A stretch of 32,000 nucleotides of DNA, taken from Candidatus Saccharimonadota bacterium (GTDB taxonomy: Bacteria; Patescibacteriota; Microgenomatia; UBA1406; GWC2-37-13). Shown here one piece after another: positions 1-23,572 of the stretch. The stretch covers positions 690,001 to 722,000 of the forward strand of contig CP064967.1 of NCBI GenBank assembly GCA_016699265.1, given 5' to 3'. The notes beneath the pieces are model-generated. The model did no database searches and had not been told where the DNA came from. It saw only the letters and a program-made list of their open reading frames with translations. Each line of letters starts with the position of its first letter. Positions within the stretch are counted from its first letter, which is position 1. Position numbers and translations under genes: made by a program.

Positions 1-4
1 CCGA

Positions 5-22
5 GTCCAGGGGGAGGGATTC
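5..22 (-). repeat. Orphan copy of the last 18 nt of tRNA-Tyr (direct repeat of 114..131)
   Basis: gtccagggggagggattc is identical at 5..22 and 114..131. The second copy is the T-loop end, T-stem 3' strand, acceptor 3' strand and discriminator of tRNA-Tyr. In addition, 11..20 (ggggagggat) is complementary to 61..70 (catccctccc). Confidence 0.85.
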
Positions 23-76
23 ACATTCGACTCGCTAATGCTCGCTCAGGGTAAACTTCTCATCCCTCCCGATTAC

Positions 77-109
77 AAAAAAATGGACAGGAAGAATCCT
101 GTCATTTTT
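77..109. terminator. Bidirectional intrinsic terminator hairpin
   Basis: 7-bp stem GACAGGA (86-92) / TCCTGTC (97-103) with a 4-nt loop. An A7 run lies upstream (77-83) and a T5 run downstream (105-109). On the minus strand this places a T7 tract right after the hairpin, 3' of tRNA-Tyr. Confidence 0.7.
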
Positions 110-114
110 CTGGG

Positions 115-1630: not shown

Positions 1631-3328
<1,698 letters not shown>

Positions 3329-3335
3329 TTACTGA

Positions 3336-3647
3336 TTACTCGACTATGGCCATAACATCATGCTCCTCAATGAGCATCCAGTCTTCCTGACCAACCTTAA
3401 CTTCGTTACCTCCCCATTTTTTATATAGAACTTTCTGCCCGATCTTGAGTTCGATTGGCATTCTTTTTTCTCCGTCTTCATCGAACTTACCTGGACCAAT
3501 CGCCATTACCTCACCAATCTGAGGCTTCTCTTTGGCAGAGTCTGGAAGAATAATCCCTGAAGCTGTTCTGTCCTCCTGTCCCATAGGTCTAACAAGTACG
3601 AAATCATGAAGAGGTTTGATTGAAGGCATTTGTGTATTTTTTACCAT
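3336..3647 (-). CDS. groES: Co-chaperonin GroES (Cpn10)
   Basis: The sequence IKPLHDFVLVRP...GIILPDSAKEKPQIGEVMAIGPG...YKKWGGNEV is canonical GroES. The likely true start is the internal ATG at 3629 (MPSIKPL). Confidence 0.95.
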   Translation of the reverse strand: MVKNTQMPSIKPLHDFVLVRPMGQEDRTASGIILPDSAKEKPQIGEVMAIGPGKFDEDGEKRMPIELKIGQKVLYKKWGGNEVKVGQEDWMLIEEHDVMAIVE

Positions 3648-3715
3648 AGCTTTTACTTTTAATAACTAATAAAATGAAAATAAGTACGAAAACAATTAGC
3701 AGTCTAACTAGGTGT

Positions 3716-3744
3716 ATGATAGTACATCTCGTTTACATTGTCAA
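3716..3744 (-). promoter_or_regulatory. Sigma70-type promoter for groES-groEL
   Basis: The minus strand reads TTGACA (3744-3739), a 17-nt spacer, then TATCAT (3721-3716), about 70 nt upstream of groES. Confidence 0.5.
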
Positions 3745-3750
3745 TAAAAT

Positions 3751-4794
3751 ATGAATCCTCAAAATAGCATCCCAGAATTCGATAAACTAAGCCAACAACT
3801 CAACTCAGTAGTACTGCCACAAGAGCTTAAGGAAAAAGCTCTCGAACAGATAGAGAGAATTCACTTGACTCTTAAGTTTGGTGGATCCCTATCCCAATTA
3901 GACGTAGCTCAAAAGTATATAGAGTGGATTACTCACCTCCCATGGAACATCTCAACACAAGAAAAAATTGATATTATCGAAGTAAAAAAAACACTCGATG
4001 CAAATCATTTTGGACTTGAGAAGATTAAATCACGCGTTCTCGAGTATCTCTCCGTACTAATTCTACAGAAACAGTCGCCAACACCACAGTTATTTCATGC
4101 CCCAATACTGTTCTTTGTTGGACTGGCCGGTACTGGTAAGACGACCTTAGCTAGCTCCATCGCCGAGGCGTTAGGCCGAAAGTTTGTACGTATTCCGTTT
4201 GGAGGACTCTCCTCTTCGCAGGATCTTCGTGGTCAATCAAAAACTCAACCAAATGCTGAACCTGGAACTGTCATGAAAATTCTGAGAGAGGCCGGCTCAA
4301 ACAATCCAGTAATCTTACTTGATGAGCTCGATCGTATAGCTCCAGACTCACAGTCATCGATCATGGGAGTGCTTCTTGAGCTACTTGATCCAAATCAAAA
4401 TAAAGCGTTTACTGACCACTTTATAGATTTCCCATTCGATCTTTCCAAAGCATTGTTTGTGGCAACGGCAAACAACACAAACTCGATCTCAACAGCAGTT
4501 CTCGATCGTCTAGAGGTCGTACAGATGCCTTCTTACACAGACATTGAGAAGATAGCCATTGCCAAACAGTTTGTACTTCCAAAAACACTAAAAAATGCAG
4601 GAATGTCTTCAACCGAAATTGTAATAGACGATATTCTTTGGCAAAAAATTACAAGACCACTTGGTTTTGATTCAGGAATCAGAAGTCTTGAAAGAACCAT
4701 AGAAACAGTGGTGCGAAAAGCAGCGTTTAAAATGGTACAGGGCCAAAAGGGACCATTTCATCTCAACGAGACAAATTTCAAGGACTTTGTGTGA
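3751..4794 (+). CDS. Lon-derived AAA+ ATPase lacking the N-terminal substrate domain and the S16 protease domain
   Basis: 347 aa. YIEWITHLPW...HFGLEKIKSRVLEYLSV...FFVGLAGTGKTTLASSIAEALGRKFVRIPFGG..DLRG...PG......NPVILLDELDRI...LDRLEVVQMPSYT aligns motif by motif with the Lon ATPase module (Walker A, Walker B, sensor/arginine region). The ORF stops at 4794, and the next gene ends at 4810 on the other strand, so no protease domain can follow. Confidence 0.85.
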   Translation: MNPQNSIPEFDKLSQQLNSVVLPQELKEKALEQIERIHLTLKFGGSLSQLDVAQKYIEWITHLPWNISTQEKIDIIEVKKTLDANHFGLEKIKSRVLEYLSVLILQKQSPTPQLFHAPILFFVGLAGTGKTTLASSIAEALGRKFVRIPFGGLSSSQDLRGQSKTQPNAEPGTVMKILREAGSNNPVILLDELDRIAPDSQSSIMGVLLELLDPNQNKAFTDHFIDFPFDLSKALFVATANNTNSISTAVLDRLEVVQMPSYTDIEKIAIAKQFVLPKTLKNAGMSSTEIVIDDILWQKITRPLGFDSGIRSLERTIETVVRKAAFKMVQGQKGPFHLNETNFKDFV

Positions 4795-5997: not shown

Positions 5998-6780
5998 ATG
6001 AATATCTTTCATGCGCTTTTACTTGGAGTCGTTGAGGGCGTGACCGAGTTTTTACCCATCTCATCTACAGCACATCTTATTCTCACAAGTAAATTTTTGG
6101 GACTCGCTCAAACAGAGTTTCAAACGTTCTTTGAAGTCTTTATTCAATCGGGGGCAATACTAGCAGTAGTCTTTTTATACCTTCGATATGTCCTCGAACA
6201 TAAGAAAGCACTTATCAATATCATTTTGTCCTTTATTCCAACGGCAGTTGTCGGACTTGTCCTTCATAAAACAATTAAGACGGTTTTCTTCAACTCAAAC
6301 CCCCTTATCATCGCCTCAATGGCGGTTGTAGCGATACTATTTTTGATAGTTGAACACCGAATAAGAACTAAGAAATTAGAACTGAAGAAAAATCTAACTC
6401 AGATAACGAGTAAACAAGCAGTCCTCATCGGACTCATTCAGTCGCTTGCCGTTGTTCCAGGAGTTTCACGTGCGGGAATCGTTATGATCTTCATGATGAT
6501 GCTTGGATTTAAACGAGATGAATCAGCTAAGTATTCATTTTTGCTAGCTATGCCAACAATTATTGCTGCAAGCGCCCTCGATCTTTATCAGTCGAAGGAC
6601 ATTCTACTTACTTCCTCATCTATGACCTCGCTCCTTATCATCGGATTTGTAACTGCATTTATAACGGCTTATGTTTCCGTGAAATGGTTACTTAACTATT
6701 TACAGAATAATACACTTGTCGGCTTTGCCTATTACCGTCTTCTACTTGCTATAATAGTCGTTATAGCTCTAGGCCTATAA
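5998..6780 (+). CDS. uppP: Undecaprenyl-diphosphate phosphatase
   Basis: 260 aa, multi-pass membrane protein. VEGVTEFLPISSTAHL and PGVSRAG are the BacA/UppP signature motifs. Confidence 0.95.
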   Translation: MNIFHALLLGVVEGVTEFLPISSTAHLILTSKFLGLAQTEFQTFFEVFIQSGAILAVVFLYLRYVLEHKKALINIILSFIPTAVVGLVLHKTIKTVFFNSNPLIIASMAVVAILFLIVEHRIRTKKLELKKNLTQITSKQAVLIGLIQSLAVVPGVSRAGIVMIFMMMLGFKRDESAKYSFLLAMPTIIAASALDLYQSKDILLTSSSMTSLLIIGFVTAFITAYVSVKWLLNYLQNNTLVGFAYYRLLLAIIVVIALGL

Positions 6781-6786
6781 GGCATA

Positions 6787-6857
6787 GGGCCCGGAGTTAG
6801 ACGGTACAACGCTGCATTCGCATTGCAGAGGAAGGAGTTCAATTCTCCTCGGGTCCA
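6787..6857 (+). tRNA. tRNA-Ala (anticodon CGC)
   Basis: Acceptor GGGCCCG/CGGGTCC with the G3:U70 alanine identity pair. Anticodon stem CTGCA/TGCAG with loop TTCGCAT. T arm AGGAG-TTCAATT-CTCCT. Discriminator A. At 71 nt it is slightly non-canonical (G8, 4-nt variable loop). Confidence 0.85.
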
Positions 6858-6859
6858 CA

Positions 6860-6936
6860 GATCTAAGGAGTTTACCGACATAAAGTCGGGATCCCGATGG
6901 CGAACCGATCGGGGCAATTCCCTGCCGGCAGGCAGG
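6860..6936 (+). repeat. 77-nt insert carrying a double-hairpin repeat (copy A) plus a 12-nt perfect palindrome, flanked by 14-nt direct repeats
   Basis: tcctcgggtccaca occurs at 6846..6859 (the 3' end of tRNA-Ala) and again at 6937..6950. The insert contains agtttaCCGACataaaGTCGGgatCCCGATggcgaaccgATCGGGg (6869..6914), homologous to the copies at 17691, 21245 and 23527. It ends with CCTGCCGGCAGG (6921..6932). Confidence 0.85.
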
Positions 6937-6992
6937 TCCTCGGGTCCACATCTCTAACGGCTGAACTCTTTAGTATAATAAGCTATTGAGAA

Positions 6993-7065
6993 GGGCCTGT
7001 AACTCAGCGGTTAGAGTGCCATCCTTATAAGATGGAAGTCCTTGGTTCGATTCCAAGCAGGCCCA
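6993..7065 (+). tRNA. tRNA-Ile (anticodon TAT, reads AUA)
   Basis: 73 nt. Acceptor GGGCCTG/CAGGCCC. D arm ACTC/GAGT. Anticodon stem CCATC/GATGG with loop CTTATAA, so positions 34-36 are TAT. T arm CTTGG-TTCGATT-CCAAG. Discriminator A. Confidence 0.9.
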
Positions 7066-7069
7066 CATT

Positions 7070-7108
7070 AGAATCTGTGTCTGATAATTTATCAGACTTA
7101 CAGATTCT
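7070..7108 (+). other. Long near-perfect hairpin immediately 3' of tRNA-Ile
   Basis: AGAATCTGTGTCTGATA (7070-7086), loop att, TATCAGAC-tt-ACAGATTCT (7090-7108). This gives 17 bp with one 2-nt bulge and no U tract after it. Confidence 0.7.
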
Positions 7109-7212
7109 TATGTCCGCCAACAATTGCAGCATGAGCCGTCTACGGATAGTAGTGAACCGAGTCTGACTCGGTGAAAAGACGAATGCTAAGTTGTGGAGGG
7201 CAGAGAAATATA

Positions 7213-7285
7213 GCGGAGATAGCCAAGGTGGTCACGGCGGTGGTCTGAAAAACCTCAGATGTCAGTTCGACTCTGACTCTCCGCA
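7213..7285 (+). tRNA. tRNA-Phe (anticodon GAA)
   Basis: 73 nt. Acceptor GCGGAGA/TCTCCGC. Anticodon loop CTGAAAA with stem GTGGT/ACCTC, which has one U-U mismatch. T arm GTCAG-TTCGACT-CTGAC. Discriminator A. Confidence 0.88.
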
Positions 7286-7346
7286 CATAGTGCGAGCAAA
7301 ATATAACCCGTTAGATTTGAGAGTTACCTTTACAAGTAAAAAAATC

Positions 7347-7375
7347 TTGAAACTAATTAATTCATCGTGTAACAT
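7347..7375 (+). promoter_or_regulatory. Candidate sigma70 promoter giving a (near-)leaderless mRNA for 7385..7657
   Basis: TTGAAA (7347-7352), a 17-nt spacer, then TAACAT (7370-7375). The ATG at 7385 is only about 10 nt downstream of the -10 box and no SD is present. Confidence 0.3.
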
Positions 7376-7384
7376 ATCAACTTC

Positions 7385-7657
7385 ATGAGCAGAATTGAAT
7401 CATTGCGATTCCCAGAAATGGGACAAGCATCTCGCATCTTAGTTACTACCGACGATCAGGGAAATCAAAGAGTAAATGGTCTTCCCGTCATCGACCAAAG
7501 AATCGCATATCAGAACGGTTCCTTTTTTCGTGAAGAGCTTATCGTCTCTGGACAATATGACTCGATGGGTCGGGTGATTGATGGCCTGACCGGTAAAGAA
7601 ACAGTTATATCTAGGATGCATCTACGACCGACTCTAATCTTCCCTGTCCGAAAATAA
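7385..7657 (+). CDS. Hypothetical 90-aa soluble protein embedded in the tRNA cluster
   Basis: ORF with ordinary, non-repetitive amino-acid composition. I recognise no family. It fills the gap between tRNA-Phe and tRNA-Gly. Confidence 0.5.
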   Translation: MSRIESLRFPEMGQASRILVTTDDQGNQRVNGLPVIDQRIAYQNGSFFREELIVSGQYDSMGRVIDGLTGKETVISRMHLRPTLIFPVRK

Positions 7658-9269: not shown

Positions 9270-9291
9270 AAGACTCCATCGCTGTTAGATG

Positions 9292-9376
9292 CGGAGAGGG
9301 TGAGATTCGAACTCACGGTCCGGTGAAGGACATCGGTTTTCAAGACCGACGCACTAGGCCACTATGCGACCTCTCC
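9292..9376 (-). tRNA. tRNA-Ser (anticodon TGA), class II
   Basis: 85 nt on the minus strand. Acceptor GGAGAGG/CCTCTCC. 3-bp D stem. Anticodon stem TCGGT/ACCGA with loop CTTGAAA. Long variable arm GTCC-ttcacc-GGAC. T arm GTGAG-TTCGAAT-CTCAC. Discriminator G. Confidence 0.92.
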
Positions 9377-9387
9377 TAAATTGTGAC

Positions 9388-9435
9388 AGGCCACTACCCC
9401 AACGGGGCCCCTTCGGGGTGCGACCTCTCCTAAAT
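9388..9435 (-). repeat. Partial duplicate of the tRNA-Ser 5' end (5 flank nt plus tRNA nt 1-21) interrupted by a 22-nt GC-rich double hairpin
   Basis: 9419..9435 equals 9365..9381 (tgcgacctctcctaaat) and 9388..9396 equals 9356..9364 (aggccacta). The extra 22 nt are ccccaacggggccccttcgggg (9397..9418), which fold as CCCC-aac-GGGG plus CCCC-ttc-GGGG. Confidence 0.85.
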
Positions 9436-15977: not shown

Positions 15978-16646
15978 CTAAACGATCTTTCCATCAACTA
16001 TTCTTATCTGTCGTTTCGTTTTTGCTGCAATGTCCGGTTCGTGAGTGACTATCACAATCGTTATCTTGTCTTCCTTATTTAATTCTTTTAGGAGTTTCAT
16101 AATTTCGTCACCTGTCTTAGTATCGAGATTGCCGGTTGGCTCATCTGCCAAAATAAGACTTGGTTGCATAATGAGCGCTCGAGCAATAGCTACGCGTTGC
16201 TGCTGTCCTCCAGATATTTTATTAGGATACGACTTTGCTTTTTCCTTAATTCCAAATCTCTCGAGTAAATACATAGCCTTCTCCTCGGCTTTATATGTCA
16301 ATTTCTTTCTTGCATAGATTGATGGAAGCATTACGTTTTCAAGAACGGTAAGTTTATTGATGAGATTAAACTGTTGAAATACGAATCCTACATACTCATT
16401 ACGAAGGGTTGAGATCTCATCATCATCGAGCTTAGAAATATCTTGTCCATTTATTGAAACTTTTCCTGTCGATGGTTTGTCTAAAAGCCCGATAATGTGC
16501 ATGAGCGTTGACTTTCCACTACCGGAGGGGCCGATTATTGAGCAAAACTCGCCATCTTTTATCTGGACAGAAATATTACTTAGTGCGGTGAAGACAACCT
16601 CCTCATCGAGCTTATACTCTTTTGTAACATTCTCTATTTTAATCAT
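15978..16646 (-). CDS. ABC transporter ATP-binding protein (MacB/LolD-type)
   Basis: Walker [11 protein letters not shown]-loop, signature [15 protein letters not shown], Walker [14 protein letters not shown]-loop VTHE. The likely start is MIKIENV at 16646. The ORF is open to 16673. Confidence 0.95.
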
Positions 16647-17680
16647 AGACAACATCACCTTCTTGTAATCCATTTAGTATCACCGTTGCCGTGTCTATTT
16701 CTTCACCGACCTCCACCGTTGTTTTTACTTTCTTTTCTCCAACTTTTTTCATTACATATTTCTTGCCACTTTCTGATTTAATAAAGGTTGTTGGTACGCC
16801 AATAACACCAACCATCTTCTTAGTGATGAACTCAACGTCTCCCGTCATCCCTAAACGATATTTCAGTTGAGCGCTATCAGAACTATCGGGAGAGGTGCTA
16901 ATCTTAACTTCATATACCGTTCCTGTTTCATCTGATTTAGGAGTAAACGCAATGGACTGTATGGTAGCTGATGTGGTCTCGTCTGGAAAAGAATCGTAAC
17001 TAATTTGACCCTTCATTCCTTCGTACATTTTCACAACATCAGTTTGATCCACAGCTCCTGAGAAATAAAGAGTTTCTGGGTTTACAATTACGAACTCGGC
17101 TTGCGTAGGGGTTATATTAACACCAGCCTGCTTGGTGCCAACCGAAGTAACAACACCAGCGATAGGCGAAACCAGAGTTGAATAACGAAGGGAGATGTCC
17201 GACAGTTCAACATCTAGAACTGAGCTATTAAGATCGAACTGCACTTTTTATATGCATCGATCGTGTCCTGTCTCAGATATTTATCTGGAGATAGTGCATG
17301 CTCATCGGTATCCATTGCCGTGTTGTCAAATGTAAGCCTTTGTTTATCATAGGTAATAAGTTCTTTCTCTAGTTGTTTCTTTAACTGTCTCTGATCCAGC
17401 GATGCTATTGATTGATACTTTTTTACCACATCACCTTCTGTTACCCCTACCCATGCGAGACGACCAGATGTCTGGAAGCGAAGAGTTGCCTTCTCCTGAG
17501 CATCTACTGATCCCGAAAATGTCAATGACTCGCTTAGTGTCTGTCGTTTTACTTTATAGGTCAACTCCACAACGGTACTTTTTTTACCCACAGTCTGACC
17601 ATAAACAATCCAACCAACAACGAAAATAATTATGAGTATGATCCACCAGCGTTTTTAATAATATTAAGCAGTTTCTTCAT
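16639..17680 (-). pseudogene. MacA/HlyD-family periplasmic adaptor broken by two frameshifts at homopolymers
   Basis: The ATG at 17680 gives MKKLLNIIK and then terminates. Adding one base to the T5 run at 17652-17656 gives MKKLLNIIKKRWWIILIIIIFVVGWIVYGQTVGKKST..., which continues into ORF 17214..17591. Adding one base to the T5 run at 17245-17249 gives ...DAYKKVQFDLNSSV..., which joins ORF 16639..17244. Confidence 0.8.
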
Positions 17681-17690
17681 AGTTTATTTT

Positions 17691-17738
17691 AGTTTTTCCC
17701 GATTTACGATCGGGATCCCGATTCTGAGGCAATCGGGG
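17691..17738 (+). repeat. Double-hairpin intergenic repeat, copy B
   Basis: The sequence is agtttttCCCGATttacgATCGGGatCCCGATtctgaggcaATCGGGg. It lies directly after the stop of 17739..18869 and upstream of the macA-like gene. Confidence 0.85.
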
Positions 17739-21239: not shown

Positions 21240-21244
21240 TTCTT

Positions 21245-21288
21245 AGTTTCCCGATTTCGATCGGGATCCTCGATTCTGAGGAATAGGG
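21245..21288 (+). repeat. Double-hairpin intergenic repeat, copy C
   Basis: The sequence is agtttCCCGATttcgATCGGGatCCTCGATtctgaggAATAGGG. It starts 6 nt after the stop of the GT2 gene and aligns end to end with copy B. Confidence 0.85.
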
Positions 21289-21290
21289 AC

Positions 21291-23526: not shown

Positions 23527-23572
23527 TTTCCGAGTTCTCAGAATCGCGATTCCCGATTTTATGTTGGGAAAA
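23527..23572 (-). repeat. Double-hairpin intergenic repeat, copy D (inverted orientation, diverged)
   Basis: The reverse complement reads ttttcccaacataaaatcgggaatcgcgattctgagaactcggaaa. This aligns with copy B (tttcccgatttacgatcgggatcccgattctgaggcaatcgggg). It lies between the two PQ-loop-like genes. Confidence 0.65.

Follow-up and report, generated by a model that had tools for sequence, protein, structure and literature searches.

A derived 91-base insertion behind a tRNA-Ala gene, with mobile double hairpins and interrupted tRNA fragments in bacteria of the candidate phyla radiation

We analyzed a 32,000-base stretch of contig CP064967.1 (positions 690,001 to 722,000; hereafter, the window) from a bacterium of the candidate phyla radiation (CPR), in which a tRNA-Ala gene is followed by 91 derived bases that include part of a second, interrupted copy of its own 3' end. 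The interruptions are a 42-base unit of two hairpins, which we call the double hairpin (DH), and a 16-base GC palindrome (PAL). The DH is a discrete, mobile element that inserts without duplicating its target, and the same layout, with hairpins lodged inside partial tRNA copies, recurs at other tRNA genes and in other CPR phyla. As to how the layout arose, we tentatively favor, with confidence a little short of even, a history in which a ~33-base segment of the tRNA-Ala tail was duplicated head to tail and later invaded by hairpin elements. The perfect 14-base repeat that first drew attention to the locus (the 14-mer) would then be the longest block of the duplicate left intact. Contigs used for comparison are given by their working labels (L005 and so on). 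The features of the locus are the following.

6787 to 6858, plus strand: intact tRNA-Ala(CGC) gene with a G3:U70 pair (ARAGORN; Rfam tRNA model, 52.7 bits)
6832 to 6866, plus strand: first copy of the duplicated unit, AAGGAGTT, CAATTC, TCCTCGGGTCCACA, GATCTAA (by alignment to the second copy)
6846 to 6859, plus strand: first 14-mer, TCCTCGGGTCCACA (exact match)
6865 to 6872, plus strand: block 1 of the second copy, AAGGAGTT, corresponding to the T-stem 5' strand and the first two T-loop bases
6873 to 6914, plus strand: 42-base double-hairpin unit, DH copy A (boundaries common to copy B and five Microgenomates-like contigs)
6915 to 6920, plus strand: block 2 of the second copy, CAATTC, which completes the T loop and adds the first base of the T-stem 3' strand
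6921 to 6936, no strand: 16-base GC palindrome PAL, CCTGCCGGCAGGCAGG, inserted in the spare copy, where it separates the T loop from the T-stem 3' strand
6937 to 6950, plus strand: second 14-mer (exact match), block 3 of the spare copy, with the T-stem 3' strand, acceptor 3' strand, discriminator, and CA
6951 to 6957: end of the second copy, TCTCTAA
6951 to 6992, plus strand: ancestral spacer between tRNA-Ala and tRNA-Ile, TCTCTAACGGCTGAAC... (compared with L005, L006, L008, and L012)

The original prediction described TCCTCGGGTCCACA as occurring twice exactly, once as the 3' end of tRNA-Ala and again beyond 77 bases that consist of a double hairpin and the palindrome CCTGCCGGCAGG. Its coordinates (6846 to 6859 and 6937 to 6950) and basic description are correct: ARAGORN and Rfam place the first 14-mer at the end of the tRNA-Ala gene, the 77 bases have the stated composition, and the whole window holds no third match when up to two mismatches are allowed. 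A chance repeat was ruled out as the source, with two or more matches to the 14-mer appearing in 0 of 100 shuffles, and an assembly artefact was ruled out by the presence of the same sequence in independent ENA, JGI, NCBI, and Logan assemblies. The gene ends in ACA in the window sequence, so that CCA is not encoded. This tail (6858 to 6860) is found in the window species and in L006; ACCA is encoded in L005 (5204 to 5210).

An empty site was sought in relatives and was found in L005, L006, L008, and L012, each of which has one copy of the 14-mer and no insert. In L005, the closest relative found (94% in UppP), a single tRNA-Ala tail is followed by the ancestral spacer (...TCCTCGGGTCCACCAGAACTCTAACGGCTGAAC...; ...TCCTCGGGTCCACCAGAACTCTAACGGCTGAACTCTTTAGTATAATAAGC...), and the more distant L006, L008, and L012 (UppP, ~70%) likewise have a single copy without insert (...TCCTAGGGTCCACACTCTAACCGAG...). 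The part of the window spacer that is homologous to the spacer of these relatives comes after the second 14-mer, and in the relatives it comes directly after the single tRNA-Ala 3' end. These single-copy empty sites identify the 91 bases delimited by the 14-mers as a derived insertion that is fixed in the window species. Contigs were assigned to this species by UppP alleles that were identical or 98 to 99% (from the ENA, JGI, NCBI, and Logan assemblies). All 15 further contigs spanning the region (UppP, 98 to 100%) are identical to the window across 206 bases, and three contigs that end inside the region agree to their ends, except for one base inside the tRNA in L003. Because within-species diversity is only ~1%, the count of 0 variable sites in 92 bases is uninformative about function.

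The flanks had been said to diverge immediately outside the two 14-mers. This is not the case, as the second copy contains the further matching blocks AAGGAGTT, CAATTC, and TCTAA. The first unit spans the T-stem 5' strand, T loop, T-stem 3' strand, acceptor 3' strand, discriminator, and a 7-base trailer, and when the inserts at 6873 to 6914 and 6921 to 6936 are deleted, the second copy matches tRNA positions 6832 to 6866 at 33 of 35 bases, with the two 33-base units abutting head to tail. A chain of blocks as long as the extra 8 and 6 exact bases arose in 19 of 2,000 shuffles of the insert, and both blocks are placed exactly at the borders of the 42-base hairpin unit. Read from this alignment and from the extra blocks, the repeated unit is 27 to 33 bases long and comprises the T arm, acceptor 3' strand, and trailer. 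The last bases of block 1 (AGTT) could alternatively be a 5' arm that is also carried by hairpin copies B and C, described below; the inserted DNA is the same 91 bases under either parse. DH copy A reads TACCGAC-ATAAA-GTCGGGA followed by TCCCGAT-GGCGAACCG-ATCGGGG and, in the spare T loop, separates T55 from C56; its target is not duplicated.

With three further copies of the hairpin unit, at about 17697 to 17738, 21249 to 21289, and 23529 to 23569, the window holds four DH copies in 32 kb, all of them between or just after genes.

17691 to 17738, plus strand: DH copy B, a 48-base insertion made up of an AGTTTT arm and the 42-base unit, between two minus-strand genes
21242 to 21289, plus strand: DH copy C, a 48-base insertion 3' of a family-2 glycosyltransferase (GT2) gene
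23529 to 23569, minus strand: DH copy D, degenerate, with a diverged counterpart in L179

The proposal that this repeat family is or was mobile is borne out by empty sites for copies A, B, and C. At the site of copy B, L181 and L183 lack an insert, and the same two genes share an ATGA overlap there. Compared with these contigs, copy B, which is inverted relative to transcription, has left its target unduplicated, and the gene downstream of it starts at a new start codon. The empty site ends in ATTTT, and the AGTTTT of copy B is inserted DNA. We considered a 6-base TCATAG/CTATGA pair around copy B as a target duplication and rejected it, as the alignment to L181 and L183 resolves the pair into the old overlapping ATGA and the new start codon. 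Copy C is missing from the otherwise alignable spacer of L181, and its flanking repeat is at most 4 bases (CTTA). The 14-mer had also been interpreted as a possible target-site duplication made by the element. This comparison does not support that reading, since such repeats are absent at copy B and do not exceed the 4 bases of CTTA at copy C. There is no duplication of fixed length per copy (14 to 33 bases at A, depending on the parse, against none at B and at most 4 at C), and the repeat at A is thus not a property of element insertion. Precise junctions without duplication were found at A and B and in L081, L089, and L135. The 5' flanks in the window are GGAG-TT, TTAG-TTTT, and TTAG-TT, while the GTAG found in L081 and L135 is the tRNA D arm there; AGTT precedes copies A, B, and C and the copy in L081. 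Beside copy B, a gene for an HlyD/LcnD-like protein (16639 to 17680, minus strand) that encodes one 347-residue protein in other strains is represented here by two overlapping open reading frames (ORFs; 16639 to 17244 and 17214 to 17591). From the start codon at 17680, a stop is reached after 16 codons, unlike in L179, possibly reflecting a frameshift or a sequencing error.

The DH unit is 42 bases long, with boundaries T...R, in copies A and B and in five Microgenomates-like contigs (L152, L155, L159, L165, and L167), and copy C has the same boundaries at 41 bases. Its pattern, TCCCGAY-N5-RTCGGGA and then TCC(N)CGAT...ATCGGGR, describes two tandem hairpins with the same stem and no terminal inverted repeat pair around a core. 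The stems are also present in genomes of Paceibacteria, Kuenenbacteria, Peribacteria, Levyibacteriota, and Saccharibacteria. They are nearly invariant, with covariation at one pair only, which suggests that the sequence itself is recognized, rather than folding alone. The first pattern applied to the genome collection was too loose, most of its 120 matches being coincidences in coding sequences of high-GC Actinomycetota, and only the ~25 low-GC loci, mostly from CPR, were used; a metagenome scan with a subfamily-specific loop yielded 6 true copies only. When Rfam 15 covariance models were applied, only tRNAs reached threshold, and the element had no credible match at E values up to 10. Annotated phage and plasmid collections gave no match to the hairpin, and nothing specific on the DH repeat family or on interrupted tRNA fragments was found in the literature on CPR.

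DH copies occur as well in tailed-phage contigs, between portal and capsid genes. Viral contigs L173 to L176 and L178, which are tailed-phage fragments of 52 to 62% GC, carry the double hairpin in almost identical form, TCCCGACTGAAGTCGGGATCCCGATCGTTGTCGGGA, between the portal gene and downstream capsid-region genes, with flanks that have otherwise diverged. Small single-stranded DNA phages were considered as the source of these contigs and rejected, given that the portal and HK97-type capsid genes point to tailed phages. A single TCCCGAC-TTTC-GTCGGGA hairpin in L006, with A and T runs on its flanks, resembles a bidirectional terminator.

The claimed association of the element with tRNA genes is upheld in that 5 of the ~25 to 30 good CPR-type copies lie inside partial tRNA copies. 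Because the loci in this count were picked solely for the hairpin pattern, and because the share of a genome taken up by tRNA fragments is tiny, the DH is linked with tRNA sequences far more often than expected by chance. The window itself contains two more interrupted fragments.

9377 to 9435, minus strand: partial 5' copy of tRNA-Ser(TGA), ATTTA-GGAGAGGTCGCA-[CCCCGAAGGGGCCCCGTTGGGG]-TAGTGGCCT, 11 bases upstream of the intact gene (9291 to 9376)
5 to 70, minus strand: T-arm-like fragment GGGAGGG-[insert]-TCGAATGTGAATCCCTCCCCCTGGAC, with the insert in the loop, 90 bases downstream of tRNA-Tyr (113 to 197)

The tRNA-Ser copy has a 22-base double mini-hairpin in its D loop, and in L006 and L012, tRNA-Cys and tRNA-Ser are adjacent, without the fragment spacer of the window. 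The T-arm-like fragment repeats the last 18 bases of tRNA-Tyr and lies at the edge of a 1.8-kb strain-variable island. Outside this species, L081 (Levyibacteriota) has GCGGGTGTAGTT-DH-CAATGGT upstream of an intact tRNA-Gly. In L089 (Saccharibacteria), tRNA-Pro is followed by ...GGCGGTTC-DH-GAGTCCGGC (the right flank is also given as GAGTCCGGCATCCCCGACCA), and a tRNA-Asp 5' fragment has its insert in the anticodon loop. In L135 (Saccharibacteria), a tRNA-Thr copy is split around an intact tRNA-Thr, GATGTAG-DH-CTCAGTTGG; DH units lie in both its D stem and its anticodon stem, and its T loop has a further hairpin. When this split copy is joined and its three missing anticodon bases are added by hand, ARAGORN calls a normal tRNA-Thr. 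In L081, L089, and L135, both DH flanks rejoin to the neighboring tRNA sequence with no duplicated bases. A tRNA-Glu fragment in L061 begins at T-loop base C56, and 5' fragments upstream of intact genes include that of tRNA-Ser in the window and those of tRNA-Gly, tRNA-Asn, and tRNA-Asp elsewhere.

Further details of these loci are worth recording. The 1.8-kb island, which encodes a rhodanese, a HAD hydrolase, and a serine hydrolase, starts at the tRNA-Tyr 3' end (window 1 to 112; L136 versus L137 at ~2200 to 4200). The strains that carry it include the window, L137, L139, L142, and L148 to L150; it is absent from L001, L136, L138, and L146, and L003 has a third variant at this site. In one strain, L139 (13290 to 15157), foreign genes adjoin the final 12 bases of tRNA-Ser, a gene of which only ACCCTCTCCGCA is kept. 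Among these genes are weak matches to DUF559 and DUF4145 as well as an unknown protein of 250 residues, and no integrase is seen before the contig ends within the island. On the minus strand of L135 (4600 to 5000), the intact tRNA-Thr(GGT) is surrounded by ~18-base imperfect inverted repeats and sits inside the anticodon loop of the split copy, an arrangement suggestive of a cassette that carries a tRNA gene and has inserted into a gene of the same kind. On the minus strand of L089 (2100 to 2760), a single hairpin of the DH family, TCCCGAC-GTTAC-GTCGGGA, replaces the anticodon arm of a tRNA-Pro-like sequence, which consists of two overlapping fragments around ~430 bases holding the real tRNA-Pro(CGG); when the fragments are joined, ARAGORN reports the anticodon TTA.

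In the history that we favor, the duplicated unit of ~33 bases would begin with the T-stem 5' strand of tRNA-Ala and end 7 bases beyond the gene, with the upstream copy completing the working tRNA and the downstream copy left as a spare. The duplication would have come first, perhaps by a copying process based on strand slippage or on microhomology (AA/AAGG at the borders). The 42-base DH would then have entered the spare copy between T-loop bases 55 and 56, and the 16-base palindrome would have entered at the junction of T loop and T stem, in neither case with duplication of the target. The elements may prefer hairpin loops as targets, and their insertions would be confined to spare copies, since insertion into a working single-copy tRNA would be lethal. 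Interrupted duplicates would persist, whereas an uninterrupted 33-base tandem repeat would probably collapse quickly. As the mobilizing enzyme, a single-strand, hairpin-recognizing transposase of the IS200/IS605 type or of the repetitive extragenic palindrome (REP)-associated tyrosine transposase (RAYT) type would fit best, because insertion is precise and free of duplication, the two hairpins are alike, and AGTT recurs on the left flank.

Several observations weigh against this history. No intermediate was found, whether an uninterrupted 33-base tandem duplicate or a T-loop hairpin without a duplicate. AGTT precedes copies B and C, too, and is inserted DNA at B; the GGAGTT at 6867 to 6872 may be part of the element, which would produce a 27-48-27 layout resembling a long target duplication. 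The T stem of the partial copy in L089 differs from that of the neighboring tRNA, and in L135 one compensatory pair sets the acceptor stem of the split copy apart from that of the inner gene, differences that a simple recent local duplication does not explain. The same population has islands integrated at tRNA 3' ends, which means that repeats made by recombinases do occur in it. Finally, the substantial ORFs of the window yielded no integrase, recombinase, or transposase domain.

The original suggestion of an attL/attR footprint deserves consideration. A site-specific recombinase would have integrated an element into the tRNA-Ala segment from T loop to 3' end, the element bringing a replacement tail like those of islands that integrate at tRNA genes. 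It would since have been mostly lost, or would always have been tiny, so that attL would now be the intact tRNA and attR the displaced tail, with the hairpins as remnants or later arrivals. A repeat running from the T arm to the 3' end and a few bases beyond is the classic identity block of such integrations (Williams 2002, as cited in PMC9897764), and the single-copy empty site in L005, L006, L008, and L012 fits as well. The island of L139, from the same species, adjoins the final 12 bases of tRNA-Ser; the 1.8-kb island abuts the 18-base tail repeat of tRNA-Tyr; the tRNA-Glu fragment of L061 starts at the same T-loop base, C56; and the T stem of the L089 fragment is unlike that of its neighbor, as a displaced original tail would be. 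However, no foreign DNA lies between the copies at tRNA-Ala except for the 42- and 16-base palindromic units, the copies abut under one parse, no integrase is present among the window ORFs or between the repeats, and the 5' fragments of tRNA-Ser here and of tRNA-Gly, tRNA-Asn, and tRNA-Asp elsewhere are unlike the products of 3'-targeting integrases. We regard an origin of this kind as unlikely, if by no means far-fetched. A target duplication of unusual length strikes us as quite unlikely. In that case, a 48-base element (GGAGTT arm and DH) would have duplicated 27 target bases (CAATTC...TCTAA), thereby restoring the tRNA, and the palindrome would have arrived later. The 27-base repeats do abut the 48-base element on both sides if GGAGTT is counted in, and copies B and C are also 48-base insertions starting (N)AGTT, but the lack of a comparable repeat at B and C argues that its length is no property of the element. 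Furthermore, the bases before the unit in L081, GTAGTT, match its own tRNA-Gly rather than GGAGTT, which argues that the arm follows the local tRNA; the second repeat in L081 is 49 bases away and does not abut the element; and the tRNA-Ser hairpin lies inside its fragment, not between copies.

Selection for a structure could also account for some of these features. The predicted fold of the region is a three-way junction in which the spare T stem closes three hairpins (−39.7 kcal/mol; z = −3.4), and such a structure might serve as a terminator, processing signal, or 3' stabilizer of the tRNA transcript. The placement of all four window copies just after or between genes, the terminator-like hairpin of L006, and the invariance of the region within the species are in keeping with a function of this sort. 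Yet there is no T run after the structure, and a terminator scan of 6700 to 7450 was empty. The structure is missing from the closest relative, its stems are invariant and hardly covary, copy B is oriented against transcription, and the invariance of the region carries little weight at the low diversity noted above. A selected RNA or DNA structure therefore seems very improbable to us. A bolder proposal, which we consider decidedly improbable, is that the DH and the small palindromes are tiny, CPR-wide mobile elements that specifically invade tRNA loops, with insertion coupled to copying of the neighboring tRNA segment. The gene would thereby repair itself, and its interrupted portion would stay behind. 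If this were true, the partial copies at tRNA-Ala, tRNA-Ser, tRNA-Tyr, tRNA-Gly, tRNA-Pro, tRNA-Thr, and tRNA-Asp would be footprints of one undescribed process rather than unrelated accidents, and the coupling of insertion with duplication would give a mobile element a new means of settling in an essential gene while leaving it functional.

The integration of elements at tRNA genes is known to leave partial tRNA genes behind (Williams 2002 and Reiter 1989, reviewed in PMC9897764). The loci described here resemble those of tRNA-integrating elements with attL and attR sites in the direct repeat of a tRNA 3' portion from T arm to gene end, in the absence of the insertion from relatives, and in the islands of this species at the tails of tRNA-Ser and tRNA-Tyr. 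They differ in that the copies at tRNA-Ala are adjacent, with no element or integrase between them, in that the partial copy is interrupted in its loop, and in that 5' fragments also occur. REP sequences and the REPINs of RAYT transposases are palindromes tagged with GTAG and CGTC, and REP elements inserted at the center of palindromes have been described (PMC3733652). Like them, the DH consists of short palindromic units of 20 to 40 bases that are paired, lie between or just after genes, have a conserved stem sequence, and insert without target duplication, and some REP families are centered in other palindromes. Unlike them, the DH hairpins are tandem and contiguous, lack a strict GTAG or CGTC tag (having TTAG or GGAG and then T's), occur in few copies (4 in 32 kb), and have the same stem across CPR phyla. 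No RAYT (Y1 transposase) gene was found in the 32-kb window, which is a small part of a genome of ~0.7 to 0.9 Mb.

Unlike miniature inverted-repeat transposable elements, the DH has neither a duplication of fixed length nor terminal inverted repeats; duplicates abut the element only if GGAGTT is counted in, and L081 and tRNA-Ser point to a hairpin within a tRNA copy. The noncanonical tRNA introns of Thermoproteales archaea resemble these loci in that short structured sequences interrupt tRNAs at D-loop, T-loop, and anticodon positions, but the host here is a bacterium and the inserts lie in incomplete, nonfunctional copies beside an intact gene. The DH presumably also resembles miniature elements derived from IS200/IS605 (palindrome-associated transposable elements). 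By analogy, its two similar end hairpins, precise duplication-free insertion, and recurring AGTT on the left flank would be features in common with that family; in contrast, AGTT at copy B is inserted DNA rather than target, and no TnpA gene was identified in the window. Partial tRNA copies and REP-like palindromes are thus both known, but we found no description of precise insertions at loop positions of spare tRNA copies across CPR phyla.

CPR bacteria have genomes of ~1 Mb with mostly single-copy tRNA genes, and to our knowledge their small repeats have been little described. The tRNA genes studied here are hot spots at which partial copies arise, hairpins insert precisely into the loops of these copies, and islands come and go. 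Interrupted tRNA fragments also have practical consequences. They break assemblies, as in contig L003, which ends inside the element; they are open to miscalling as tRNAs or attachment sites; and they can mislead the inference of target-site duplications. The genes around the locus are bacterial and include those for GroEL/GroES, a Lon-like AAA protein, glycosyltransferases, UppP/BacA, a NUDIX protein, MazG, adenylosuccinate synthetase, and an FtsX/ABC/HlyD export system. Named UppP homologues are labeled Roizmanbacteria, Woesebacteria, or Microgenomates, and the uncultured, Roizmanbacteria-like organism is assigned to the CPR accordingly. The tRNA-Ala gene comes directly after uppP and heads a run of tRNA-Ala, tRNA-Ile(TAT), and tRNA-Phe.

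The PAL motif, CCTGCCGGCAGG(CAG), occurs as well in CPR-type contigs L019, L132, and L167, and the copy in L167 is nested in the loop of a DH-type TCCCGAC...GTCGGGA hairpin. Another repeat motif, CCTGAGCG(N)AGC...GCGA(A)G, was found both in the nested palindrome of L167 (6940 to 7070) and in the T-loop insert of the tRNA-Tyr fragment of the window (30 to 55, minus strand). The spacer between tRNA-Ile and tRNA-Phe (window 7067 to 7212) measures 146 bases, compared with 17 in L005 and 8 in L006. We considered whether it contains a tRNA-Phe fragment and rejected this, the match being of 8 bases only and estimated to be within chance. Its extra DNA opens with a 44-base imperfect palindrome, TTAGAATCTGTGTCTGATAA-TT-TATCAGACTTACAGATTCTTA, and has a second hairpin, CCGAGTCTGACTCGG, making it a third tRNA-adjacent insertion in the lineage of the window.

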